Shown piece after piece: positions 3,863 through 62,808 of a stretch of 64,000 bases of DNA; position 1 is the stretch's first letter, and every line of letters starts with the position of its first letter. The DNA lies in the IMG/VR virus record IMGVR_UViG_3300045747_000505; one strand, 5' to 3'. Source of the stretch: a virus (lineage: Duplodnaviria; Caudoviricetes). The position numbers and the translations under genes were made by a program. The notes beneath the pieces were generated by a model. That model made no database searches and was not told where the DNA came from. It saw nothing but the letters and a program-made list of their open reading frames with translations.

Positions 3863-4071
3863 GTGGCACGGCGTGTCTTCGCCTCGATGCCACTTGACTG
3901 CGCCAAGTTCTACAATCGTCTTATGAATAGGTTGGTGCTCAACATCTGGGCAGTTAGAATGGGTCTGTTCGATACGCTGCTGTGCGAGACGTCGGACCCA
4001 TTCGTCTTCGTGCGCTGGTGCGAAGCGCTACCAAGAATCATTGAAACCATCGAAGCCAACGGAGGCTCATC

Positions 4072-4647
4072 ATCGACGTCGACATAGACACGCAAACCAG
4101 CTTCGACCCAGTGAAGCTCTTCCCATCGTGGGTTCGCGCCTCGGTCGTCCGCGATGGTCGCCTGACGCCACACCCATGCGGCGTCTACCCTCAGCGCATG
4201 CCACGCGACCCACTGACCAAGCTCGCCGCCATTCCGCACGAGGCAGCGGAGGACTTCGGCTTTCTCAAGGTCGACTTTCTGCACCTGAGCGCCTACAACG
4301 GGTTCAAGTCCCGTGAGGAGATCGAGCGCCTCGTCGCGCTTGAACCCAACTGGTCGCTGCTTCAGCTCACCTCAACGCACGGCAAGCTGTTTCAGCTGTC
4401 CAAGCATGGTGACATGTTGAAGGCGGTCAAGCCATCATCCGTCGAGGAGCTCGCGGACTGCATGGCGCTGATTCGACCTGGCAAGAAGGCTTTCCTCGGT
4501 CTCTACACGAAGGAGCGGGCTGCGGCTCGCGTGCTGCTGTACGCCAAGGACCCCGAGAGCGGCTACGCTTTCAAGAAGTCGCACGCGCTTGCGTACGCGC
4601 TGGTGGTCGTGCTTCAACTTCATCAGATTGAGCAGGGCAGCTTGTGA
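4072..4647 (+). CDS. Stand-alone minimal DNA polymerase III alpha (DnaE)-like catalytic domain; probable ATC start
   Basis: DVDID (4075-4089), HPCGVY, GFLKVDFL, ALIRPG and GYAFKKSHALAY match DnaE motifs. The DxD motif lies upstream of the called GTG (4111); GGAGG at 4061-4065 precedes ATC 4072; in-frame TGA at 4042. Confidence 0.8.
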   Translation: MDVDIDTQTSFDPVKLFPSWVRASVVRDGRLTPHPCGVYPQRMPRDPLTKLAAIPHEAAEDFGFLKVDFLHLSAYNGFKSREEIERLVALEPNWSLLQLTSTHGKLFQLSKHGDMLKAVKPSSVEELADCMALIRPGKKAFLGLYTKERAAARVLLYAKDPESGYAFKKSHALAYALVVVLQLHQIEQGSL

Positions 4648-5967: not shown

Positions 5968-6252
5968 TTGGAAGGGACTTTGAAAGTGAAGATTGTCTAC
6001 GAACCGCTGCCCGCCGGCATCAAAGCTCACAAGTTCTATCCGGGCGAGCGCTGCGTCCTCATCGACGACAAGCACCTCGCGGTTTGGGTCGACAATCAAC
6101 TCATTCAAGCCGACCGTCCACTCCCGCAAAACAGCGGCTACCTGCGCGTCACCAACGAGCCGTTGCCCTCCATCCTCTACGCCCACCACACTCAAATTGC
6201 CCACATCGCTCGCGAACGCATCACCCTGCCGTTCGCACTAAAGGAGTTCTGA
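5968..6252 (+). CDS. Hypothetical protein
   Basis: Downstream of promoter at 5951; TGATG overlap with next gene. Confidence 0.6.
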   Translation: MEGTLKVKIVYEPLPAGIKAHKFYPGERCVLIDDKHLAVWVDNQLIQADRPLPQNSGYLRVTNEPLPSILYAHHTQIAHIARERITLPFALKEF

Positions 6253-8250: not shown

Positions 8251-8535
8251 GGAAACCGTGAGCCTCCGCAAAGCCATCTCCAACTGGTTTCTCGCCTCGT
8301 GGTGGTTCGTGCCACCGACGCAGCCGGTCTACGTGCCACCGCCGAAGCCGAACCTGACCGTGACACGTCACACTCGGCCTCGCTGCCCGACCGGTCCAGC
8401 CCGAGGCGTCTACATTCAGCGCTGATCGTTACAGACCCTGAAAATTGTTACACCTCAGGGTCAACACTTCGTCCTAAAAAGGGATATAGTAACACTTGTC
8501 GAAAGACTTGTTCCACAACCTCACCGGAGTTCATC

Positions 8536-49892: not shown

Positions 49893-51413
49893 ATGAACCG
49901 CCAAGAATCCCGCGCCATTTCCACCAAGTTCGATGTCCGCACGCTGCTGCAACCCAAGGACACCGACAAGCCGTATCCGATCATCGACGACCTGCTCGTC
50001 AGCCTGATCTTCCAGACCGACAGCTACAAGTTCACCCACCCCTTCATGTTCGCCGAGCTGAACAAGCGCGTCGGCAAGCCGCGTGTTGTTGGCATGTCCA
50101 GCTACGGCGAAGCCCGTGTCGGCCGCAGCGAGAAGGTTACCGTGTTCGGTGGCCAGATGGGCGTCAACAAGCTGTTCTCACGTCCCATCACGATGAAGGA
50201 CGTCGATGCCGCCGAAGCCTTCGCGCTGGCCCACTTCGGTCGTCCGCTGTTCGCCCGCTCTGCCTGGGAGAAGGTCGTCAACGAGTACGATGGCTACATC
50301 CCCGCCATCATCCGCGCCGTGCCGGATGGCACCGTCATCCGTGGTGGTCTGCCGATCTACTCGGTCACCGTCCTGGACATCGACCTGTTCTGGATGTCGA
50401 GCGGCATCGAGACCGCTCTGCTCCGTGCCTACTGGTACCCGACCACCATCGCCTCGCTGGACCGCGACACCAAGGTCGAGCTCAAGCGCTTCTACGAAAT
50501 CGGTGGCGCCGATCTGGCCGGTCTCGAGTTCGCGCTGCACGACTTCGGCGGTCGCGGCGTCACCTGCTCCGAACAAGCGCAGGTTGGCGGTGCCGCTCAC
50601 TTGGTCTCCTTCATGGGCTCCGACACCATCGAGGGTGTGCTGGCCATGAACTACTACTACGACTCGCCGATGTCGGCCTTCTCCGTGTTCGCCACCGAGC
50701 ACAGCGTCGAGTGCTCCTTTGGTCTGGACGACGCCGGTGAGCGCGATTACCTCAAGGCGCTGCTCATCAACGCCGTCGAAGGATCCATCGTCTCGATCGT
50801 CATCGACGGCAAGGACATGTGGCGTTGTGCCGAGACGCTGTGCTCGCCCGAGTTCCGTGATCTCATCATCGCCTCCAAGGCCAAGGTCGTCTTCCGTCCT
50901 GACTCTGGCGACATGCTGGAAGTTGTGCCGCGTCTCCTGCGCCTGCAAGACGCTGCCTTCGGTCACACCGTCATCAACGGCTACAAGAAGATCAACTACG
51001 TCGGCATCATCTACGGCGACGGCGTCGATCGCATGAACATGCTCACGATGGTCGGCAACATCATGGCCATGGGCTACGCTCCTGACTGCATGGTGTTCGG
51101 CTCCGGCGGTGCGCTGCTGATGAAGGTCAACCGCGACACCTACAAGTGGGCTCAGAAGGGTTCATGCCTGTTCTTCGAAGACGGCACCACCCTCGGCATC
51201 GCCAAGGACCCGGTCACCGACCATGGCAAGAAGTCGAAGGAAGGTCTGATGACCGTGTTGCGCCACAAGATGACCGGTGAACTGAGCGCCGGCCGCCTCG
51301 ATCTCGGTCCCATCAGCGACGAGTTCGAAGACATCCACGTGCTGATGTACCACACCGGCAAGGTCTACAACAAGACCAACGCTGCTGAAGTGCGCGAACG
51401 CGCTGCGGTGTAA
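49893..51413 (+). CDS. nadV: Nicotinamide phosphoribosyltransferase (NAMPT)
   Basis: TDSYKFTH, ETALLRAYWYPTTIAS, LHDFGGRG, AHLVSFMGSDT, ATEHS, RPDSG, YGDG, FGSGGALL, KDPVTDHGKKSKEG. Confidence 0.96.
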   Translation: MNRQESRAISTKFDVRTLLQPKDTDKPYPIIDDLLVSLIFQTDSYKFTHPFMFAELNKRVGKPRVVGMSSYGEARVGRSEKVTVFGGQMGVNKLFSRPITMKDVDAAEAFALAHFGRPLFARSAWEKVVNEYDGYIPAIIRAVPDGTVIRGGLPIYSVTVLDIDLFWMSSGIETALLRAYWYPTTIASLDRDTKVELKRFYEIGGADLAGLEFALHDFGGRGVTCSEQAQVGGAAHLVSFMGSDTIEGVLAMNYYYDSPMSAFSVFATEHSVECSFGLDDAGERDYLKALLINAVEGSIVSIVIDGKDMWRCAETLCSPEFRDLIIASKAKVVFRPDSGDMLEVVPRLLRLQDAAFGHTVINGYKKINYVGIIYGDGVDRMNMLTMVGNIMAMGYAPDCMVFGSGGALLMKVNRDTYKWAQKGSCLFFEDGTTLGIAKDPVTDHGKKSKEGLMTVLRHKMTGELSAGRLDLGPISDEFEDIHVLMYHTGKVYNKTNAAEVRERAAV

Positions 51414-51417
51414 GACC

Positions 51418-51513
51418 GTGCTTGCCTCACTCTACGAGCATCGCCCCAAGATCATGTCAGCGCTGCTCATCTGCCTCGCGATCATGATCGGCGCCTGGAT
51501 CGTCATCTGGTAA
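51418..51513 (+). CDS. 31-aa membrane peptide
   Basis: MLASLYEHRPKIMSALLICLAIMIGAWIVIW. Confidence 0.4.
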   Translation: MLASLYEHRPKIMSALLICLAIMIGAWIVIW

Positions 51514-51596
51514 GCGTTACAACTGTTACAGACGCGTAGCGTCAACCTTGGAGTATAATGGCCTCATCGACAACAAGTCTTTGAGGCCATTCTCGT

Positions 51597-51866
51597 ATGC
51601 AACTCTCACACTCCGACCTTCAGGTCTATCGTCTCCTGACCGATCCACTCGTCGGCGAAGGACCAGGCGAATACTTTCGTCGGCAGCGCGACACGCTCGC
51701 CGTGCAAGATGTCGGCAACGCCGAGTTGATTCGCCTCTGCAACGTTCGTCGTCAAGCCGACTACGTCGAGGGCCTCGTCGAGCGCCTCAAGGCGAAGGAT
51801 GCTGGTACCCTCGACGCGCTGGTTGAAGCCGTCGTTCTCCTCCTCAACACTCAATACAAGCCATGA
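51597..51866 (+). CDS. Hypothetical protein
   Basis: GAGG RBS after TATAAT promoter. Confidence 0.65.
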   Translation: MQLSHSDLQVYRLLTDPLVGEGPGEYFRRQRDTLAVQDVGNAELIRLCNVRRQADYVEGLVERLKAKDAGTLDALVEAVVLLLNTQYKP

Positions 51867-52087
51867 CCACCATCGCCCTCCCCAATCCCTGGAACAGCAT
51901 CGAAGCCACGCCCGAACAGTGCCGGCTCATGCATCAGCTGCACGCTGATGAGCAGCGCTCCATCGCCGCTGGCCAGCACTATCAGGCGGTCGCCGTGGCC
52001 ACTGGCTCCACTCCACAGCAGAAGCGCGACGCTTACGACGCCTACCGCTACTCGCTGGATGCCAACCACCCCGCCAACTTCTGGTGA
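51863..52087 (+). CDS. Hypothetical protein
   Basis: ATGA-coupled ORF. Confidence 0.6.
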   Translation: MTTIALPNPWNSIEATPEQCRLMHQLHADEQRSIAAGQHYQAVAVATGSTPQQKRDAYDAYRYSLDANHPANFW

Positions 52088-52091
52088 GACC

Positions 52092-52430
52092 ATGGCCCTC
52101 ATCTTCATCGCCGTCCCCACCTCCGGCGTCGTCACGGACAGCGTGCTCAACGAGAGCTTCATCGCCGACGTCGCCAAGCTTCACGAGCTGTATCCACAGC
52201 ACACATTCATCGTGCCGATGATTCAGGACTACGCGCTGCTGCCGTACCTGAAGGTCGAGGCGACGTGGGAGGTCTGGGGCCACCACTGCAAGGCGCTCAT
52301 CGAAGCGTGCCGCGAGGTCTGGATCCTGATGTATCCCGGCTGGGCCAAGTCGACCGGCGTTCGTGGCGAGATTGAAATCGCCGAGGACTTCGGCACTCCG
52401 GTGGTCCGCATTCCGATCCCGCTGCGATAA
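52092..52430 (+). CDS. DUF1937-like (nucleoside deoxyribosyltransferase-fold) protein
   Basis: IFIAVP...W...C.EVWILMYPGWAKSTGVRGEIEIA. Confidence 0.6.
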   Translation: MALIFIAVPTSGVVTDSVLNESFIADVAKLHELYPQHTFIVPMIQDYALLPYLKVEATWEVWGHHCKALIEACREVWILMYPGWAKSTGVRGEIEIAEDFGTPVVRIPIPLR

Positions 52431-52643: not shown

Positions 52644-53221
52644 AGCTTCTTGAAATCCGAGCCGTCGGCAACTCGCCGATCGACCTCTCCGACCCAGACA
52701 ACAGGCCTGGCGCCTACGAGCGTGAGGGTGCTGCACGCGACTCCTACGCGCAGAAGATCGCCAAGGGCTCAGCCGAAGCCGACAAGATGGCTGAAAAGCT
52801 CGGTGGCACGCTGAAGAAGCATCCGCCAAGCCAGTTCATTTCAGGCGACACGCCGTTCTGGACAATCTCTGGTCTCGACTTCGAAACGAAGGGTGGCAAG
52901 AAGGTTCGCTGCTCAATCGACCGTGAGCCTCATCACCGTCGTCAGGCGCTGTTCTTCCGCAACACCTTTCTGAAGCATCCGAAAGGCGTTCACAGCCACG
53001 ACAACGAGGCGAAGCGCACCATCGAAGCCCTTGAGCGTGAGATCAGCTCTGCTCATGAAGAAGCCTTCGGCAAGCGGGCGCTTGGCACCGACTTCCTCTA
53101 TGATTCGAACGACAAGGACTACACGCTCATCGGCCTCAGCGTTGGCATTCCGCTGATGGACGGCGTCAAGGGAGTTCAGTTCGTCAAGAAGGTCATCGCT
53201 CTCATCACGAAGCAGTTCTAA
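52640..53221 (+). CDS. Hypothetical protein
   Basis: ATGA-coupled; phage codon usage. Confidence 0.7.
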   Translation: MKLLEIRAVGNSPIDLSDPDNRPGAYEREGAARDSYAQKIAKGSAEADKMAEKLGGTLKKHPPSQFISGDTPFWTISGLDFETKGGKKVRCSIDREPHHRRQALFFRNTFLKHPKGVHSHDNEAKRTIEALEREISSAHEEAFGKRALGTDFLYDSNDKDYTLIGLSVGIPLMDGVKGVQFVKKVIALITKQF

Positions 53222-53895
53222 TGCCAACCGCCCAGCTTCGCTCGCTGGCTGCCAAGTCAGACAAGACTCTTGGTGACCTCGAGCGCTACTGGGCAGACGC
53301 CAAGGTTGAAGCTCATCACAAGTTCAAGAAGAAGGACAAGCACTTCTGGGCCTACGTCGTCGGTATCGTCAAGCGCCGCGCTGGGCTGAGCGAAGAGGAC
53401 ATCAGCTTCAAGACCTATCTGCTCCTCATCGAGGACGACAAGGCGCACGGCAAGGCTCTCGAGCGAACAGGCTTCTGGGGCAAGGCTGGTGCGGGTTGTA
53501 TCATTTTAGCTCGGGACACGGGAAGAATCTGCCTGCCGAAGCGAAGCAAGGACGTGGAGCAACCACACACTTGGGGAACTTGGGGTGGCGCTATCGACGG
53601 AAGAGAGGCGCCTAAGGCCGCTGCAGAGCGCGAGGTCCGTGAGGAAGCTGGATATACAGGCAAGCTCGAAATCGTTCCCCTGTACGTTTATAAGCATCCC
53701 AGTGGCTTCACCTACCACAACTTCCTGGCCATCGTGGACAAGGAGTTCGAGCCAGAGCTGAACTGGGAAACGTCGACCTACCGTTGGTGCTCGCCAACGA
53801 AGCTGCCGTCGCCGCTGCACTTCGGTCTGAAGGGTCTGCTTGCCGACGCCGCAAGCTGGCAGAAGATCAAAGACGCTCAACCTAAAAAGACGTAG
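53221..53895 (+). CDS. Nudix hydrolase with N-terminal helical domain
   Basis: Nudix box GGAIDGREAPKAAAEREVREEAG. Confidence 0.88.
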   Translation: MPTAQLRSLAAKSDKTLGDLERYWADAKVEAHHKFKKKDKHFWAYVVGIVKRRAGLSEEDISFKTYLLLIEDDKAHGKALERTGFWGKAGAGCIILARDTGRICLPKRSKDVEQPHTWGTWGGAIDGREAPKAAAEREVREEAGYTGKLEIVPLYVYKHPSGFTYHNFLAIVDKEFEPELNWETSTYRWCSPTKLPSPLHFGLKGLLADAASWQKIKDAQPKKT

Positions 53896-53924
53896 CCTGA
53901 AGACTGAGACATAGAGTAAAATAC

Positions 53925-54256
53925 AGACATGGGTGCTACAGCCATTCTGTAGTGATTGTTGTAATTCGGAGCAAGTTGAAGGATTCTGGACGCGGGTTCG
54001 ATTCCCGCCAGGTCCACCACAAAACACATACCGCCGGCTGTAGAATTCGGCAACACCTTAGGGACGATCCACGTGGTGTGTGTTTTGTAATGGGCCTGAC
54101 CTGGTCTCGACAGGGTTACGGAGATGCGCACACGCAACACGAGAGTCGACCGACGTAATCGGCGAAAACACGCTAAGTGCAAACGAAGCAAACTTCCGTC
54201 TGGCTGCTTAATACCCAGCTCACGGTGAGGCTAACCACCTTATAAAGCAACGGTGA
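53925..54256 (+). ncRNA. ssrA: Circularly permuted (two-piece) tmRNA; tag ANEANFRLAA*
   Basis: 3' acceptor piece GCGGGTTCGATTCCCGC-CAGGTCC-A-CCA ends at 54019 and precedes the 5' piece GGGCCTGAC-CTGGTCTCGAC at 54092; G3.U70 pair; tag frame 54179-54211; outer ends approximate. Confidence 0.9.
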
Positions 54257-54282
54257 GGACAGGACACTTCGGTGTCCTGTCC
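54257..54282 (+). terminator. Hairpin after tmRNA coding piece
   Basis: GGACAGGACAC-TTCG-GTGTCCTGTCC. Confidence 0.75.
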
Positions 54283-54306
54283 GCTATCATTTATACTGGA
54301 GACCCT

Positions 54307-54795
54307 ATGCGCAAGCTGCTCGCCGCTCTCATGCTCACCCTCTCGCTGGGCGCTGCTGCCCAGTCGGAGCCGCATGTTCAGATCGGCGCAGCAGACTTCA
54401 CGGTCTTCAAGGTCTATCCGAACTTTGCGCTGCTCTTCGACCGCGAGTCGATGCATGGTGATGCCAACACCGGCGACGCGGTGATGACGATCAAGATTCA
54501 CCTGAAGTCCCCAGACCCAAGGCTCGTGCCGAAGTTTCCGGTCAAGTTCCTCGTCAACACTCTCTTCATCGAGTGCGAGAAGGATCAAGTCACGGTGCTG
54601 GTCAGCCAGATGTATGACGATGAGAATGACCTCGTCGGCATTCGTCGATACTACCCGCCCATTTCGAACCCACACTCAGAAGGTGCGCCGGCCACTGAGG
54701 TCCTCGACTTCGCCTGCGCCTCGAATCCGAAGTACCCGAACAAGCGTAACACGCCTATAATTGTTACACCTGACGATGACCGGAATGGTGTATAA
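54307..54795 (+). CDS. Secreted protein (surface-adhesin-like small beta protein)
   Basis: Signal peptide MRKLLAALMLTLSLGAAA; two Cys. Confidence 0.75.
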   Translation: MRKLLAALMLTLSLGAAAQSEPHVQIGAADFTVFKVYPNFALLFDRESMHGDANTGDAVMTIKIHLKSPDPRLVPKFPVKFLVNTLFIECEKDQVTVLVSQMYDDENDLVGIRRYYPPISNPHSEGAPATEVLDFACASNPKYPNKRNTPIIVTPDDDRNGV

Positions 54796-54816
54796 TAGCC
54801 TCATGGAATCACAAAA

Positions 54817-54891
54817 GCGTCGTTAGCTCAATGGTAGAGTACGGGCCTCTAAAACCCAGGGTTATCGGTTCGATCCCGATACGACGCACCA
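54817..54891 (+). tRNA. tRNA with CUA anticodon (amber suppressor), tRNA-Lys-like body
   Basis: Acceptor GCGTCGT/ACGACGC-A-CCA, D-arm GCTC/GAGT, loop CT-CTA-AA (CTA 54849-54851), T-arm ATCGG-TTCGATC-CCGAT; anticodon stem has only 3 Watson-Crick pairs. Confidence 0.85.
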
Positions 54892-54912
54892 CCTCTTTTC
54901 AAGGAACCCAAA

Positions 54913-55206
54913 ATGTCTCTCTACGATCGCATGCCCCGCACGTCTGGCGAGAACATCGCCAACCGTCTCGCCTCGCAGAAGCTGAGCACCGACATGTGGG
55001 TGGGCAAGTTCGACAAGTGGCCTGATGGCTGCGGTGTTCGCAACGCCTCGCTCGCCCTCGGCAAGTGGATGGGCCTGTACGAAGCGCTCGGTCAGATTCA
55101 GCCTGAGCTGATCACGCAAGAGATGCAAGCCACGATGCGCGTCTACGCTGACGCCTGGGAGCGCATCGAGAATGTTCCACTTCGCCAGTACGAGCGGCTT
55201 GCGTGA
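54913..55206 (+). CDS. Hypothetical protein
   Basis: AAGGA RBS, co-transcribed after the tRNA. Confidence 0.7.
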   Translation: MSLYDRMPRTSGENIANRLASQKLSTDMWVGKFDKWPDGCGVRNASLALGKWMGLYEALGQIQPELITQEMQATMRVYADAWERIENVPLRQYERLA

Positions 55207-55442
55207 AGGGTCTCAGTCCACTCGGCCTCGTCAAGGATCATCACATTGATCGAGGTCCGTGGGCGATTCGAATTGGGCAGATGCTGAAGGACGTTGGGCG
55301 ACAAGTGTTGCCCATCTCGAATCAAACGGTGCTGCCGGTGCTGACTGACATCGTCGAGGACGAGTTCGTTGCCACCGTGCCAACGATCGACAAGCACGAA
55401 GTTGGATTTCAAATTGGGGACATGGTGCTACCAAATGATTGA
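55203..55442 (+). CDS. Hypothetical protein
   Basis: GTGA overlap. Confidence 0.5.
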   Translation: MKGLSPLGLVKDHHIDRGPWAIRIGQMLKDVGRQVLPISNQTVLPVLTDIVEDEFVATVPTIDKHEVGFQIGDMVLPND

Positions 55443-55617
55443 AGTCATCAAAGCAAGAGACAAGGCCGTGTGGAAGGTCAAGCTCGACAAGAAGCTGGTC
55501 GGTGAGATTCGCTTTCTCAATCCAGGCTTTCAGTACTTTCCGCGTGGCTCGAAGGAGGGTGGCGGTGTGCTGCCCTCGCTGAACGCCGTCATCAAGTCGC
55601 TCGAGGACTATTCCTGA
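55435..55617 (+). CDS. Small hypothetical protein
   Basis: GGGGA RBS; MIEVIKARDK... Confidence 0.55.
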   Translation: MIEVIKARDKAVWKVKLDKKLVGEIRFLNPGFQYFPRGSKEGGGVLPSLNAVIKSLEDYS

Positions 55618-55764
55618 ACCTAAACAAATCGATGTACAAGTCCTAAGGACAGTGTACAATAGGAACTGTTGAGAAGCTCACAGTGGTGAGCAGTATCTTA
55701 GATAGTTGGCATAGACCGGGACCCCGTTGTCGCCCAGCCACAAACGACGACATCAACTAGTGAG

Positions 55765-56151
55765 ATGATCATGTAGATCCGCACTTCCAAAACCTACCTC
55801 TACGCAATCACACGCCGCGATCTCCCACTCGCGCAACAGGCTGTTCAAGCTGGCCACGCCGCCATTGAGCACGCTTACCAACATGGTCGTCCGCACGATC
55901 ATCATCCGTCGTACATCAAGCTGACGACGCGAGACAAGGCCGCTCTTCTCGAGCTTCAGGCCACGCTTGCCACGCACGGCATTCAAACCGCAGAATTTCA
56001 CGAGCCATACAAAGCTTGGGGCCTCACCGCAATCGCCTGTCTTCTCGGCGAGGAACAACGCTGTCTGTTACGACAGTTACAGCTTTGGACCACGCAGAAT
56101 GCTCAGGTTCGTGATACAATGGACACATCAACCACTCGGAGTTTCTCATGA
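55765..56151 (+). CDS. Peptidyl-tRNA hydrolase type 2 (Pth2)-like protein with in-frame TAG at codon 4 (missed by the ORF track)
   Basis: ATG ATC ATG TAG ATC CGC...; KTYLYAITRRDLPLAQQAVQAGHAAIE...FHEPY...GLTAIA; TGA overlaps the next ATG. Confidence 0.75.
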
Positions 56152-56627
56152 CTCATCCCCTCGTTACCAAGTGCCTCGCCGCTCAGGCCGAGGTCGACAG
56201 CATCGTAGCCCTGCTCAAGGGAAATAGCAAGCACCAGATCGACATCATGAAGGAGCTCATCGAGCGCGCCGACATGCCCGAGATCAAGCTGGACAAGCGC
56301 TTCGCTGGTCTCTTCAGCTACGACTACATCGAGATCGAGGTCTCCAGCGCTGGCCGCGCCTCCTTCAGTGTCTGGGAGGATGCCTACGCCGATATCCCGG
56401 AGGAGAACGTCGGTGAGTTCGACCTCAGCGAGCACATCCTCGACGGTCGTGACGACGACTTCCGGCTCGAGTACGAAGCCTACGTGGCTCGGATCGCCGA
56501 GGCCTTTCGTGAGCGCGCGTGGATTCAGCGCGACGCCGAGATCGCTCGTGCTCGCGCCACCCTCGACCAGCTCGAGCGGCAGCGCGAAGCCATCATCGCC
56601 CACGGCCCCATCAGGATCAAGTCATGA
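56148..56627 (+). CDS. Hypothetical acidic protein with C-terminal coiled coil
   Basis: CGGAG RBS after TACAAT promoter. Confidence 0.75.
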   Translation: MTHPLVTKCLAAQAEVDSIVALLKGNSKHQIDIMKELIERADMPEIKLDKRFAGLFSYDYIEIEVSSAGRASFSVWEDAYADIPEENVGEFDLSEHILDGRDDDFRLEYEAYVARIAEAFRERAWIQRDAEIARARATLDQLERQREAIIAHGPIRIKS

Positions 56628-56869
56628 ACCTCGCCGAAGCACAAGCCGCCCACAAGGCTGCGATCGACCTGCGAACCGAGCTGTGGCGCCGGGTTCCCAA
56701 GACCATTCAACTACCCGACTGGCGCGATGAGGGTGAGTTCGACACCTTCGAGCTGTACCACATCGACGCCATTGGTCTGACGGCCAGCTATCGCATGTAC
56801 ATCGGTCGCAATGAGTACGACTACTCTGCGGCCCAACCAATCATCCTCACCGAGCTCTTCAAGGACTGA
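56624..56869 (+). CDS. Hypothetical protein
   Basis: ATGA overlap. Confidence 0.6.
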   Translation: MNLAEAQAAHKAAIDLRTELWRRVPKTIQLPDWRDEGEFDTFELYHIDAIGLTASYRMYIGRNEYDYSAAQPIILTELFKD

Positions 56870-56870
56870 C

Positions 56871-57344
56871 ATGACCACCTTCACCATCATTCACCTCACG
56901 CCGGCCTCGAACAGGGACTGGAGCGGCGAAGATCAGAGCTACATCACTCAAGAAGCTCAGACCCGAATCGACATCACACGCGTCATCGAGCGCGCGGCCG
57001 ACTTCTGGATGGACGGCATCAAGAAGGCCGGCCATGAGAAGAACACGTTCATCCTCATCAACGGTCGCGAGCCCGAGGACTATCCCTACAACCAGGACGT
57101 GGACGTCAACGACTACCTCGACGATGACCCCTACACTCCCGAGGAGCTGGGCGACTACGCTACGCTTCGCGCCATTGTGAACGCAAAGGTCGACGACTGG
57201 AAGGCCGAGAAGGCCGCAGCTGAAGAAGCCGAACGTCAACGCCTCGCAAATCTGGCTGCTGCAAAGGCTCGTCAAATCGCTCAGATGCAGCGTGACAAGG
57301 ACGAAGCCGACTTTCAGCTGCTCAGGCGCAAGCTGGGCAAGTGA
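56871..57344 (+). CDS. Hypothetical protein with C-terminal coiled coil
   Basis: AAGGA RBS. Confidence 0.7.
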   Translation: MTTFTIIHLTPASNRDWSGEDQSYITQEAQTRIDITRVIERAADFWMDGIKKAGHEKNTFILINGREPEDYPYNQDVDVNDYLDDDPYTPEELGDYATLRAIVNAKVDDWKAEKAAAEEAERQRLANLAAAKARQIAQMQRDKDEADFQLLRRKLGK

Positions 57345-57397
57345 TCACAACCGTCCGCGCACTTCTAATAGCATTAGTTGGCAAATAAGGAATTGCA

Positions 57398-57490
57398 ATG
57401 ATCTAGGTAAACGCAGTCGCTCGTGGTCCTCCGAGGTTGAATGACACATTCACGGTTCATTCACTTCACATTTCAAGGATCACATCATGA
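57398..57490 (+). other. Amber-interrupted leader ORF (ATG ATC TAG ... TGA) coupled to the next gene
   Basis: AAGGA RBS at 57387; read-through frame has no other stop until TGA 57488-57490, which overlaps ATG 57487. Confidence 0.55.
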
Positions 57491-57873
57491 CCAAGCTCTA
57501 CGACAATCTCTACGCCGAGTTCTCCTTCACCTCCCGTGAGGAGTATCTCGAGGCATCCAAGCGCTGGAAGGCTGACTACGCTCAGCGCTCAGCGAACATT
57601 CGCACCACCCGTGCCGCCTTCAAGGCCGCGCAGCGTGAGGTCTCCAAGGCCGAGCTCGCGTTCGACGGCAAGCCGCTCTGGCACCTCGACTACGACAACC
57701 CAGCGCGCAAGGCTTGGGTTGCAGCGTCCAAGCCGATGGCCGAAGCCATGTACGCCCTTCGGGATCAGCGTCGCATGGCAGTGCTCATGCTCGAGGTTCG
57801 CTCTGGCATGAAGTGCGAGGCTGGCAATCAGCGTGAGCTGCGTCTTCAGGACGAAGCGCTGAAAGCGGCTTGA
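57487..57873 (+). CDS. Helical phage protein (SREEYL...WKADY type)
   Basis: AAGGA RBS; amphipathic helices. Confidence 0.75.
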   Translation: MTKLYDNLYAEFSFTSREEYLEASKRWKADYAQRSANIRTTRAAFKAAQREVSKAELAFDGKPLWHLDYDNPARKAWVAASKPMAEAMYALRDQRRMAVLMLEVRSGMKCEAGNQRELRLQDEALKAA

Positions 57874-57952: not shown

Positions 57953-58534
57953 ATGAAGAAGTCTCTCATTGCTCTCGCCCTGCTCGCCGCTACCTCCGCC
58001 TTCGCTGGTGGCACCGGCTTCGTCTCCTACGACTACGACCGCCTCAACAGGGGTCAAGGCCCGCTGCGGTATCAACAGACCGTCAAGACCGGCGTCGCAT
58101 TCGACACTGGCCTTGGCACCGTTGACCTGGCTGGCATCGGTCGTCAGCTCGTCGGCACCGCCAAGGACAACAACCTTGGCGTCGAGGTCGGCTACGGTCT
58201 CAAGCACAAGTACATGGGTGCCACGCTTGGCGCCCGCGCCGCCTGGACTCGCGTCAATCTCGTTGACACTCACAACCGTACCTTCCGTGGTCGCAGCGAG
58301 TACTACACGCTTGGCGCTGACCTGTCGGCTCCGCTGTCCAGCAACACGGCAGCCTTCGTTGGCTACACTCACCTGTCCCCGCTGAACGGTGGCACCTCAC
58401 GCGCCAACCGTACGACCCTCGGTCTGGACCTCAAGCTGACCTCAGCGATGTCGGCTCGCCTCGGCTACGCCTACACGGTTCAAGACGGTCAGTCCCTGAA
58501 CGGGTTCACGACCGCCGTGTCGTACGACTTCTAA
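57953..58534 (+). CDS. Outer-membrane beta-barrel protein
   Basis: Sec signal MKKSLIALALLAATSAFA; alternating amphipathic strands; C-terminal YDF (BAM-type Phe). Confidence 0.8.
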   Translation: MKKSLIALALLAATSAFAGGTGFVSYDYDRLNRGQGPLRYQQTVKTGVAFDTGLGTVDLAGIGRQLVGTAKDNNLGVEVGYGLKHKYMGATLGARAAWTRVNLVDTHNRTFRGRSEYYTLGADLSAPLSSNTAAFVGYTHLSPLNGGTSRANRTTLGLDLKLTSAMSARLGYAYTVQDGQSLNGFTTAVSYDF

Positions 58535-58665: not shown

Positions 58666-58983
58666 ATGAAACGCACTCCAAACAAATCCCCTAATCACAA
58701 CCAACTTTGGTATCGTGCGCAGTTGACGCCCATGTCGACCTCGCTATTTACCGACGCTTTTTATCCGAAACCGAAACGAGGTTCAGGCGCACAATACGTG
58801 TTCTTCACCCAGATTGACGTGACACCAACCACGCACAAGGTTATCTTGGCCTCACGCCTGGAAGAATCCGGTGTTAGAATGGTGACACACGAACTGGCAA
58901 CGAGAATCCTCATCCCGAAGGAAAAAGCGACCAAGGCTGAAATGGCAAAACTGAACGAACTGACCGCAAAACTGAAAGTCTGA
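58666..58983 (+). CDS. Hypothetical protein
   Basis: Follows TATAAT promoter; start lies in or next to hairpin GAGAGCCCT/AGGGCTCTC. Confidence 0.6.
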   Translation: MKRTPNKSPNHNQLWYRAQLTPMSTSLFTDAFYPKPKRGSGAQYVFFTQIDVTPTTHKVILASRLEESGVRMVTHELATRILIPKEKATKAEMAKLNELTAKLKV

Positions 58984-59633
58984 TGACCTACTTTACCTAC
59001 CTCTACTCGGACCCAAAAGTTGGCGTCTGGCGATACGTAGGTAAGGGCGACTCTTTTAGACCGTTCGCTCACCAACGAAAGGCTTCTAACAAACAACTGA
59101 CATCGATGATTCGGAAGAGAATGAATGAAGGGTTCAAGATAGAACCAGTCCTCATTCAAGCGCCATCTGAGATGTCGGCCTTTGCGATGGAAATCTTTTG
59201 GATTGCGGTTATTGGGCGTGAAGACCTTGAGTTAGGAACGCTCTTCAACAAAACAAATGGCGGCGAAGGTGTAAGCGGACGAGTTGTAGGACCAGAAGAA
59301 CGAATGGCTCGTTCGGTCTTGCGAAAAGCCGAATACGCTAGACGCACACCAGCAGAGTGGGAACACTTCAACAGACAACGTAGTCAAAACCTCCATTCAA
59401 AATCAGATAGCGAAAAGGCTATCATCGCTGAAAAAATCTCGCTCGCTACATCGGCATCCTATCAGGGAAAAGATGAGGCGTCCAAGGCTGAAATCTCTAG
59501 GAAGAAGGCCGAAGCGAAAACAAAGTATCATCAAGGCCTGAGCGAAGAACAACGTGCCGCACGTGCGAAGAACATCGCCGACGGTATGGCTCGAGCCAAA
59601 GCCCTAAAACTCTCGGAAAAACTGAAGGTCTGA
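58983..59633 (+). mobile_element. Free-standing GIY-YIG (LEM-3-like) homing endonuclease
   Basis: YTYLY...YVGKG...R...H...EIFWIAVIGR...GTLFNKTNGGEG; A-rich; flanked by a 16-nt direct repeat. Confidence 0.8.
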
Positions 59634-59875: not shown

Positions 59876-60420
59876 AGACAGCACGCCACCTCTGGCTTGA
59901 CCTTGAGGACACCATCATCACGCCAGTTCTGAATGGCTGGTTCAATGTTCAGCTCATGAACATTGTCAAGGTGCGGCAGGTCATCAAAGAGTTTGAGCCA
60001 GACTACGTGCACATCTTCTCGTTCGCCATCTGGGATCAGGCGCAGCTGCACGGCTTCAACACTCTGCTGCGTGATCACCTTGAACGTGCACTTGGCGTTG
60101 AGTTCAGCGTGGTGCCAACGGTGGACGACGACATTCTGCCACGCTGCTGCAAGGTTGCTGGCATTCACCGTGACACGGTCTCCTTTCTGGAGATGAGCGA
60201 CTTCTGGGGCAAGCACGAGGCGTTTCGCCTGTTCATGCGCTCGACCTACGCCAACATGCAACCCGACGTCTCCGTCGACGTCATGCTGCTCGACGACTCG
60301 GTCATCAACGAATCCTTCAACTGGCCTGACCTTCGAATCTCAGGTCGCATCTTCAACATCGAGAAGCCCATATGTCTTCAACCGTCATCTCAGCCTATCT
60401 GGACGCCGCGAACGGCGTGA
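59872..60420 (+). CDS. HAD-superfamily-like hydrolase
   Basis: LWLDLEDT (motif I-like), IFS (motif II), MLLDD (motif IV). Confidence 0.55.
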   Translation: MKTARHLWLDLEDTIITPVLNGWFNVQLMNIVKVRQVIKEFEPDYVHIFSFAIWDQAQLHGFNTLLRDHLERALGVEFSVVPTVDDDILPRCCKVAGIHRDTVSFLEMSDFWGKHEAFRLFMRSTYANMQPDVSVDVMLLDDSVINESFNWPDLRISGRIFNIEKPICLQPSSQPIWTPRTA

Positions 60421-60767
60421 CTCCCGTTGCTCCGGTCCCTGCGAAGCAGGCCAAGCCGAAGCGTGAGCCGAAGCCAGCACGGATCACCGTCACCGACGAA
60501 ACGCGTGAGCGTCGTGCCTCCTACAAGAGCGCGCTCAAGTGCGGCAAGTGGGTCATCGAGTTCATCAAGGTCGACGGCACGCCGGCCGTGATGGAGTGCA
60601 CGCTCGACGCCAAGTACCTGCCCGCCGTCGATCCGCTGAAGCCGATCGTGTCGCGCCCAGATGTCAGCGAACACCTGCTCCACGTCTACGCCACCGACCG
60701 TCAAGCCTGGCGCTCGTTCACCGTCGACAACGTCACGAAGTTCTACAAGCTCGTGGAGTCGCTGTGA
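60372..60767 (+). CDS. WYL_2/Sm-like phage protein
   Basis: IEFIKVDGT..MECTL...VY.TDRQAWRSF..DNV. Confidence 0.7.
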   Translation: MSSTVISAYLDAANGVTPVAPVPAKQAKPKREPKPARITVTDETRERRASYKSALKCGKWVIEFIKVDGTPAVMECTLDAKYLPAVDPLKPIVSRPDVSEHLLHVYATDRQAWRSFTVDNVTKFYKLVESL

Positions 60768-62202: not shown

Positions 62203-62808
62203 ATGTCTAAATTTTACGCCTACATTTATAGAGACAACGAGGTTCCGTTTTATGTTGGTAAGGGAACAGGCAATCGTGCCTATCTTCATCTTACCGACCG
62301 AAGAGGATCACACTTTACAAATAGGGTTCAGCGTCTCGTAAGAGAAGGTCGAGCCCCGACAATAGAAATCATCGAAGCGCTGGACGAGGACCACGCCAAG
62401 TTTTTAGAAGTTTGTCTCATCGAGGTCATTGGTCGTGCCGACCTTGGCAAAGGAACATTGTTGAACCTAACCGATGGTGGCGATGGTAGAACAACTTGGT
62501 CTGAAGAACAGAAACGGCATCACTCTGAAAAAATGACGGGACAGAAGAGAACGGAAGAAACCAAAAGACTGATGTCTGAAGTACAATCGCAGATACCAAG
62601 ACAGAAGGCAAAACCAGGCGAAAAGAAACGAGGACCAGCGAAAGGAACGAAGTACGCAAATCGTGTCAACGGAACCTTTAGCGACGAACATCGACTAAAG
62701 TTGGCGCAATCTCAAACCGGAAAAACGCATTCGCCTGAGACCCGTGCCAAGATCGCAGAGACACGGCGGAAGACAGAAGAACGAAAGAAGATGTTACAGA
62801 CAACCTAG
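62203..62808 (+). mobile_element. Free-standing GIY-YIG homing endonuclease with NUMOD3-type repeats
   Basis: YAYIY...FYVGKGTGNR...H...GTLLNLTDGGDG; HSEKM, HSPETRAKIAE; A-rich. Confidence 0.85.

Follow-up and report, generated by a model that had tools for sequence, protein, structure and literature searches.

Why does a phage that keeps the standard genetic code carry a stop codon within the first few codons of an apparently intact gene, and encode a transfer RNA (tRNA) able to read that codon 0.9 kilobases (kb) upstream? The question is raised by a stretch of 64,000 nucleotides (nt), hereafter the window, from a virus of the Caudoviricetes (IMG/VR record IMGVR_UViG_3300045747_000505), in which a gene for a protein resembling the peptidyl-tRNA hydrolase Pth2 begins with an amber (TAG) leader and lies downstream of an amber suppressor tRNA. 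A preliminary description of this DNA had combined these elements with a transfer-messenger RNA (tmRNA) and a Nudix gene into a translation quality-control island; it did not draw the conclusion that is central here, namely that the hydrolase gene, through its amber codon, comes to depend on the tRNA. In the explanation that we consider probable, the phage gates synthesis of the Pth2-like protein through a suppressor tRNA of its own, the output rises and falls with suppression, and the enzyme clears the by-products of readthrough.

The amber leader, ATG ATC ATG TAG, occupies positions 55765–55776 of the + strand and was recognized from its sequence and from a design shared with relatives. Either ATG 55765 or ATG 55771 could serve as the start, and the latter has the better-spaced GTGAG Shine–Dalgarno-like sequence. 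The leader TAG (55774–55776) is followed by A, and the frame behind it stays open from 55777 to 56148, until a TGA (56149–56151) that overlaps the ATG of the next gene; the resulting body of 124 residues (55777–56151, + strand) was delineated with homologues, an AlphaFold2 model, and Foldseek. Past the leader TAG, no ATG, GTG, or TTG occurs until codon 114, and the first β-strand of the AlphaFold model begins six residues past the TAG. A systematic scan of the 64 kb returned exactly one amber-led gene, the Pth2-like one. Contigs of four DNA runs were also compared with the window, a comparison in which parts without cover carry no meaning; among the sequencing runs listed as carrying this DNA, there was no RNA run. 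A contig from the independent sample X3 is identical to the window over 55653–56068, leader TAG included. In a strain diverged by ~5% from an independent wetland sample (X4), a 3-nt deletion lies just after the position of the window's TAG, and only 1-nt indels occur upstream of the ATG on the same contig, a pattern that fits translation continuing through the stop. Judged by its sequence, the frame is a real, constrained gene.

The same design recurs among relatives, whose DNA was taken from IMG/VR, JGI, and other metagenomes. A Shine–Dalgarno-like sequence, an ATG, zero to three sense codons, a stop, and an in-frame body were found in ~100 distinct related loci. It was seen in ~30 of the 35 close-clade IMG/VR loci (with one to three sense codons and no canonical start before the first β-strand), ~45 of the 60 distinct loci of a branch that is ~35% identical, and 56 distinct metagenome loci. 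Such recurrence far exceeds what chance would produce. A purine follows the stop in all 34 leaders (A in 28), as against ~50% after ordinary TAG terminators; in E. coli genetics, a purine after the stop is a context favoring suppression. An unbiased scan of all fetched loci pointed to the same targets, since 37 of its 42 TAG-leader candidates are Pth2-like genes or genes for HD-domain proteins, and three of the remaining five are Pth2-like genes split by an insertion. In the loci numbered L063 (3033), L071 (2098), and L074 (6766), the amber-led N-terminal part of the Pth2-like gene runs into a frame of ~330 codons with a different continuation, as if the hydrolase gene had been split by insertion of a gene of endonuclease type. 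In L061, an ORF (open reading frame) at 6133 (+) starts with ATG TGA, continues for 173 codons, and lies ~1.9 kb upstream of an amber-led Pth2-like gene; from its GGQ motif, it looks like a class-I release factor or an ArfB-type protein.

The dependence of the leader on a particular tRNA is suggested by the way in which the two change together. Loci with a TAG leader contain one or two tRNA(CUA) genes, in most cases within 0.1–3.6 kb of it. The leader of L029 is TGA, and this locus carries two tRNA(UCA) genes; a TGA leader is likewise accompanied by tRNA(UCA) in L035, and the TAA leader of L041 by tRNA(UUA). Among the loci examined, none was found whose leader stop is paired only with a nonmatching suppressor; in the metagenome scan, no additional TGA or TAA leaders appeared. 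If 31 TAG, two TGA, and one TAA leaders were assigned by chance to this set of tRNAs, simple arithmetic gives a perfect match in ~1 of 18,000 assignments; shared ancestry weakens this figure, but the switches include two or three independent ones. At the level of sequence, the leader stop and the suppressor anticodon covary across loci.

The amber suppressor tRNA of the window (54817–54891, + strand; called by ARAGORN, with an Rfam tRNA score of 60.1 bits) has a complete cloverleaf and a stop-complementary CUA anticodon. It belongs to class I, with a short variable arm, and has a perfect 7-bp acceptor stem, A73, and an encoded CCA; we infer that it is expressed and charged. The in-frame TAG of the Pth2-like gene provides it with a target, in keeping with the covariation described above. 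Among 228 local tRNAs, the closest paralogues of the suppressors are mostly tRNA-Arg(UCU)-like, but recognition by ArgRS needs C35. Glutamine had been entertained as the residue inserted at the leader TAG, based on the Q at this position in database homologues, and was rejected because the DNA shows that those proteins had been translated with TAG as Q through code-15 gene calling. As a side observation, the suppressor or the Pth2-like gene often has a tRNA-Arg(UCU) gene in its vicinity, away from the main tRNA array (L005 8855, L006 8411, L022 7353/7436, L035 6576, L036 6119, L041 1981, and L046 5001). Additionally, two short Logan contigs (L042 and L043) contain, adjoining the Pth2-like gene, an odd tRNA for which ARAGORN gives the two-letter anticodon "tc". 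Several suppressor tRNAs have their nearest relative in this tRNA, which may itself be a suppressor of unusual shape.

The protein behind the stop has 94 close homologues of 50–75% identity, and a profile search with it reached 3307 clusters at E ≤ 1e-3. Sequence searches of the PDB with the protein gave nothing significant, and it was the fold search alone that gave matches. The AlphaFold2 model has a predicted local distance difference test score of 90.9, and its ten best PDB matches in Foldseek are all of the Pth2/Bit1 type (template-modeling (TM) scores 0.5–0.74, probability 1.0), so the modeled protein has the α/β fold of Pth2. It shares this fold with characterized members of PF01981 (1q7s, 1wn2, 3erj, 2zv3, and 1xty; TM scores 0.64–0.73, Foldseek probability 1.0) and appears to share with them the Q..HAA helix motif and an acidic residue and a Thr on facing strands. 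Within the family, Q24, H27, E76, and T84 are invariant, and 24 of 40 diverse members of the wider family match the Pfam model at E ≤ 0.01 (best 5.9e-9). Relative to archaeal and eukaryotic Pth2, however, the protein is only 12–19% identical, and the Lys-Gly-Lys before Q..HAA is seemingly Gln-Gln in a weak alignment. It is also encoded by phages of bacteria, which normally use the unrelated Pth1. Peptidyl-tRNA hydrolase function is accordingly a prediction from the modeled fold.

From the anatomy, fold, and conservation of the gene, a sequence of events can be proposed. Ribosomes would start at the Shine–Dalgarno-preceded ATG (55771 or 55765) and reach the UAG one to three codons on. Without a reader of UAG, RF1 would terminate and no protein would be made, as no other start codon precedes the conserved fold; when the phage tRNA(CUA) is made and charged, the UAG would be read and the 124-residue Pth2-fold protein produced, so that protein output would track the strength of UAG suppression in the infected cell. 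Going by its fold, the protein may be an esterase with peptidyl- or N-acyl-aminoacyl-tRNA as its substrate. With the tmRNA next to it, it could clear the by-products of readthrough, i.e., ribosomes run to the ends of mRNAs and dropped peptidyl-tRNA, and the phage might thus run its suppressor without choking translation. In this scheme, the amino acid inserted, the substrate of the enzyme, and the benefit to the phage are what we infer. Suppressor tRNAs push ribosomes past stops and thereby create tmRNA substrates (Ueda 2002, as cited in the review PMC3985003), and the functions of tmRNA and Pth have been described as physiologically connected (Singh & Varshney 2004, as cited in the same review).

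Several observations weigh against this reading. Phages with an opal suppressor still end 44% of their long ORFs in TGA; suppression must therefore be partial or weak, costly, or context-dependent, as far as such counts can tell. L031–33 and L037 have ordinary ATG starts yet carry tRNA(CUA) nearby, and gating is therefore not obligatory; a quarter to a third of the loci lack a suppressor inside the fetched flank. The anticodon stem of the window's tRNA(CUA) consists of three G–C pairs flanked by two C/A mismatches, and since the database Q at the leader stop is a gene-calling artifact, the inserted amino acid is not read from it. The HD gene that accompanies the hydrolase gene in relatives was sought in the window and is absent from it (best tblastn E=0.19). 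The protein of the window scores 15.9 bits (E=0.015) on Pfam PTH2 (PF01981), below the gathering cut-off of 23, and a profile alignment to 1wn2, itself weak (E=1.2), places an S-K-G-K stretch against A-Q-gap-gap, with the Lys not kept. Given the missed cut-off and the apparent replacement of Lys-Gly-Lys by Gln, the substrate may be something other than peptidyl-tRNA.

The rival explanations differ in how much of the arrangement they leave intact. The closest of them accepts the gating and departs from the preferred explanation only in the target of the enzyme: the Pth2-like enzyme, joined in relatives by the HD protein, would act on the suppressor tRNA itself, stripping its aminoacyl or peptidyl group or trimming its 3′ end, and would hold suppression at a set level, much as RF2 senses the in-frame UGA of its own gene, prfB. 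This has a low but real likelihood in our view. The gene stays beside the suppressor even where it has an ordinary start, which suggests a functional tie beyond regulation, and its frequent partner is an HD phosphohydrolase, the two being fused in XacN1 and RAS14; HD domains are known from tRNA 3′-end repair in CCA-adding enzymes. Moreover, TGA remains the main terminator of opal-suppressor phages, so suppression must stay moderate. The tmRNA neighborhood, on the other hand, fits by-product clean-up at least as well. A third role for the enzyme follows the preliminary description, which had inferred a coordinated module keeping translation running under host defenses: tmRNA, tRNA, and the Pth2-like enzyme would sustain translation against host toxins that attack tRNA by cleavage or acetylation or that cut mRNA, and the amber codon would be incidental or a timing device. 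Pth reverses the N-acetyl-aminoacyl-tRNA made by GNAT toxins, and the loci lie near large phage tRNA arrays. The rescue of ribosomes on cut mRNAs by tmRNA (PMC3985003) speaks in the same direction. We nevertheless consider this role unlikely, because it leaves unexplained an early stop that is kept in >100 diverged loci and switches with the tRNA anticodon, and because toxin damage to tRNAs would lower the output of a tRNA-gated repair enzyme just when the cell required it most. By-product clearing, which we prefer, is not distinguished by the evidence from governing the suppressor or acting against host toxins.

Other explanations dispense with the suppressor altogether. ATG-(x)-TAG could be a complete start–stop upstream ORF, after which the Pth2-like protein would be re-initiated, independently of the suppressor, at a noncanonical codon (ATC here). 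Bacteria and lambda do have start–stop elements and bar-type minigenes, and the codon following the stop is often ATC or ATT. Across loci, however, this codon varies (ATC, ATT, GTT, AAC, ACA, ACC, and AAT), with no near-cognate start conserved, and the identity of the leader stop tracks the neighboring anticodon, which re-initiation would not require; this makes the explanation very unlikely. Still less credence, indeed almost none, can be given to whole-genome reassignment of TAG (code 15), a pseudogene, or an assembly error. Gene callers did translate many homologues with TAG as Q, but the 64 kb contain a single gene with an in-frame TAG, and TAG ends both the Nudix gene and ORF 3863–4087. 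The ORF is also intact and conserved in hundreds of relatives, and the leader TAG is present, without differences, in the X3 contig.

The stop-codon usage of the phage bears out that TAG retains its role as a terminator. TAG ends two of the 65 long ORFs in the window and 6% of those in related loci, and genome-wide recoding of TAG was rejected on the counts of in-frame TAGs and of TAG terminators. The window's only two convincing + strand genes ended by TAG, at 3863–4087 and 53221–53895, each have a back-up stop within three to eight codons; such stops would limit the damage from amber suppression.

In most relatives, the Pth2-like gene is followed by an HD-domain gene with the same ATG-x-stop leader (e.g., L006 10327–10875 and L025 4035–4604), and the stop of this second leader also switches, to TGA in L029 (11643–12215) and to TAA in L041 (4023). 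Cultured phages carry the arrangement as well. Distant Pth2-like homologues were found in ~28 GenBank jumbo-phage records. In Serratia phage BF, the gene begins ATG ACG CAC TAG inside an unannotated gap; in Xanthomonas phage XacN1 and Stenotrophomonas phage RAS14, ATG AAG TAG stands ahead of a fused HD–Pth2 protein, the annotated start of which lies downstream. All three genomes carry tRNA(CUA); XacN1 has two copies of it in the terminal repeat, next to the tmRNA of this phage and 200 kb away from the Pth2-like gene.

A description of a suppressor-gated Pth2-like arrangement was not found in the literature. For the gating, two known systems are among the nearest comparisons. In phages using code 15, in which TAG is read as Gln (crAss-like and Lak phages; PMC10879173, PMC11210395), a phage tRNA likewise reads a stop inside phage genes, whose expression depends on that tRNA and can be timed by it. 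Those genomes, however, hold dozens to hundreds of in-frame TAGs, mostly in late genes, and have given up TAG as a terminator, whereas here the standard code is kept, a single gene in 64 kb bears the stop, and the stop falls within the first two to five codons. Furthermore, the same one or two target families (Pth2-like and HD) recur here in all lineages, and all three stops are used, each with its matching tRNA. The second comparison is prfB, encoding RF2, in which an early in-frame stop in the gene of a translation factor senses the decoding of that stop and sets the gene's own output. The prfB message escapes its UGA by +1 frameshifting and senses its own release factor; in contrast, the Pth2-like leader has no frameshift site, and readthrough by a dedicated tRNA would sense the suppressor relative to RF1/RF2.

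Many standard-code phages carry suppressor tRNAs, and in one genome announcement the targets of such tRNAs are stated as not known (PMC9022506). For such "orphan" suppressors, the module would supply a conserved and testable target, and it would constitute a natural gene switch worked by a tRNA and re-keyed by evolution to all three stop codons. It also has a bearing on annotation, in view of the unannotated gene in BF and the misplaced starts in XacN1 and RAS14. The position of a suppressor beside tmRNA and a Pth-like gene, i.e., the two bacterial routes for failed termination, offers a way to study how much readthrough is tolerated by a cell, and synthetic biology may draw on the leaders with their tRNAs for compact, orthogonal parts that sense readthrough. 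A broader proposition, tentative and in our judgment doubtful, is that standard-code jumbo phages carry a "termination override", in which the suppressor weakens one host stop, the leader on the Pth2-like (and HD) genes senses this in real time, and the enzymes, by acting on the suppressor tRNA or on its products and with tmRNA alongside, hold readthrough at a level more harmful to the host than to the phage, the circuit having been rebuilt for UAG, UGA, and UAA.

As for the island itself, the parts named in the preliminary description are all present on the + strand: the Nudix gene, tmRNA, tRNA(CUA), and Pth2-like gene are recovered by Rfam, ARAGORN, Pfam, and fold evidence. Its reading of them as one coordinated module appears partly supported by gene order across related phages, in that the suppressor and the Pth2-like gene are tightly co-conserved and the tmRNA in part, but the Nudix gene and the small ORFs are not. 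In the clade of the window, the framework runs NAMPT ... tmRNA ... suppressor ... Pth2-like gene ... three conserved genes ... tRNA array. A two-piece tmRNA occurs in 14 of 33 distinct loci of this clade, and in 13 of these the suppressor lies 21–2861 nt downstream of it; the order tmRNA, suppressor, Pth2-like gene is constant in the 13 loci and the window. In the distant branch, an ordinary tmRNA lies 3–5 kb upstream in seven of 80 loci. No published remark was found on the placement of tmRNA directly upstream of a suppressor, which is seen in the window, in the 13 related loci, and in XacN1 too.

The tmRNA of the window (53884–54302, + strand) is of the two-piece, circularly permuted type. 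Rfam RF01850 (beta_tmRNA) scores 140.6 bits at 53884–54282 (gathering score 84) and RF04321 (tmRNA_permuted) 125.3 bits, and ARAGORN calls a permuted tmRNA at 53927–54302 with the tag ANEANFRLAA. The tRNA-like 3′ piece with CCA (~53985–54020) lies ahead of the tag frame (54179–54211, stop TAA), so that the covariance-model match, the permuted layout, and the tag frame, which has a hydrophobic ..AA end and a stop, all agree with this class. A terminator-like hairpin is present at 54257–54282. The permuted architecture and a tag ending in ClpXP-type ..LAA are shared with the tmRNAs of jumbo phages (e.g., XacN1) and with the two-piece tmRNAs of beta-proteobacteria (RF01850); host SmpB may serve as the partner of the phage tmRNA.

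The remaining members of the supposed island fare less well. The Nudix hydrolase gene (53221–53895, + strand; 224 residues) matches PF00293 at E=2e-16 (60.4 bits against a cut-off of 21.1), and its terminal TAG is backed up by a TGA three codons later. Its homologues occur in only five related loci, and no specific Nudix subfamily of NCBIfam is matched above cut-off, leaving no RNA-directed subfamily assignable. By these comparisons, the gene is peripheral to the module; it may rather belong with a cluster for nicotinamide adenine dinucleotide salvage that lies upstream in the window (49893–52430) and in L001 (358–3544) and encodes NAMPT (506 residues) and a DUF1937/DUF4406 protein, and in L001 adenylosuccinate synthetase too. 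The intervening small ORFs had been proposed as modulators of the ribosome or of release factors; with zero or one homologue in related loci, they are better described as variable filler. They comprise a 162-residue ORF with a signal-peptide-like N-terminus (54307–54795, + strand), which has no Pfam or PHROG match and one weak homologue among related loci; three ORFs of 97, 79, and 60 residues (54913–55617, + strand), which have no family match and no homologue in the related loci searched; and three translationally coupled ORFs of 159, 81, and 157 residues (56148–57344, + strand) downstream of the Pth2-like gene, which are not conserved and sit where relatives carry the HD-domain gene. Beyond them, a gene of 128 residues (57487–57873, + strand), identified by synteny with tblastn, recurs 0.9–1.6 kb downstream of the Pth2-like gene in at least eight related loci.

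The preliminary description had spoken of amber leaders in the plural; the one at 55765 is solid, and a second, at 57398, is short and has no counterpart in other loci. This low-confidence candidate (57398–57490, + strand) consists of AAGGA, a 6-nt spacer, ATG ATC TAG, and 27 codons including ARGPP, and ends in a TGA that shares bases with the start codon (ATG) of the gene at 57487. A hairpin predicted there pairs the R-G-P codons with the Shine–Dalgarno sequence of that gene, with a z score of only −1.1, and the leader with its arrest-like RGPP motif was for these reasons kept as no more than a low-confidence candidate. Just upstream, ~40 nt (57357–57396) show a several-fold higher contig depth and join different flanks in four metagenome runs, being single copy within the window; the raised depth and the different flanks mark this stretch as an element repeated either in this phage or in phages that occur with it.

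The window has a phage-like G+C content of ~59%, and its + strand holds all the genes. Among INPHARED phages, megablast gave as its sole match a 40-nt tRNA-like stretch, i.e., no close cultured relative, and contigs nearly identical to the window of this wetland jumbo phage occur in pond and wetland metagenomes. A promoter-like site (TGTACA, 16 nt, TACAAT; 55633–55660, + strand), which is a consensus match only, lies ~105 nt upstream of the Pth2-like start, and similar TGTACA...TA-rich motifs also precede the tRNA array (D13). Repeated intergenic elements at 8428–8511/10129–10212 and at 62792–62870/62892–62970 contain GTTACA/TGTACA ... TATAGT-like boxes and are probably phage promoters. Downstream of the module, the window encodes a signal-peptide, β-barrel-like protein (57953–58534; weak DUF481 match), a weakly GIY-YIG-like ORF (58983–59633), and a WYL_2 (Sm-like SH3) protein (60372–60767).

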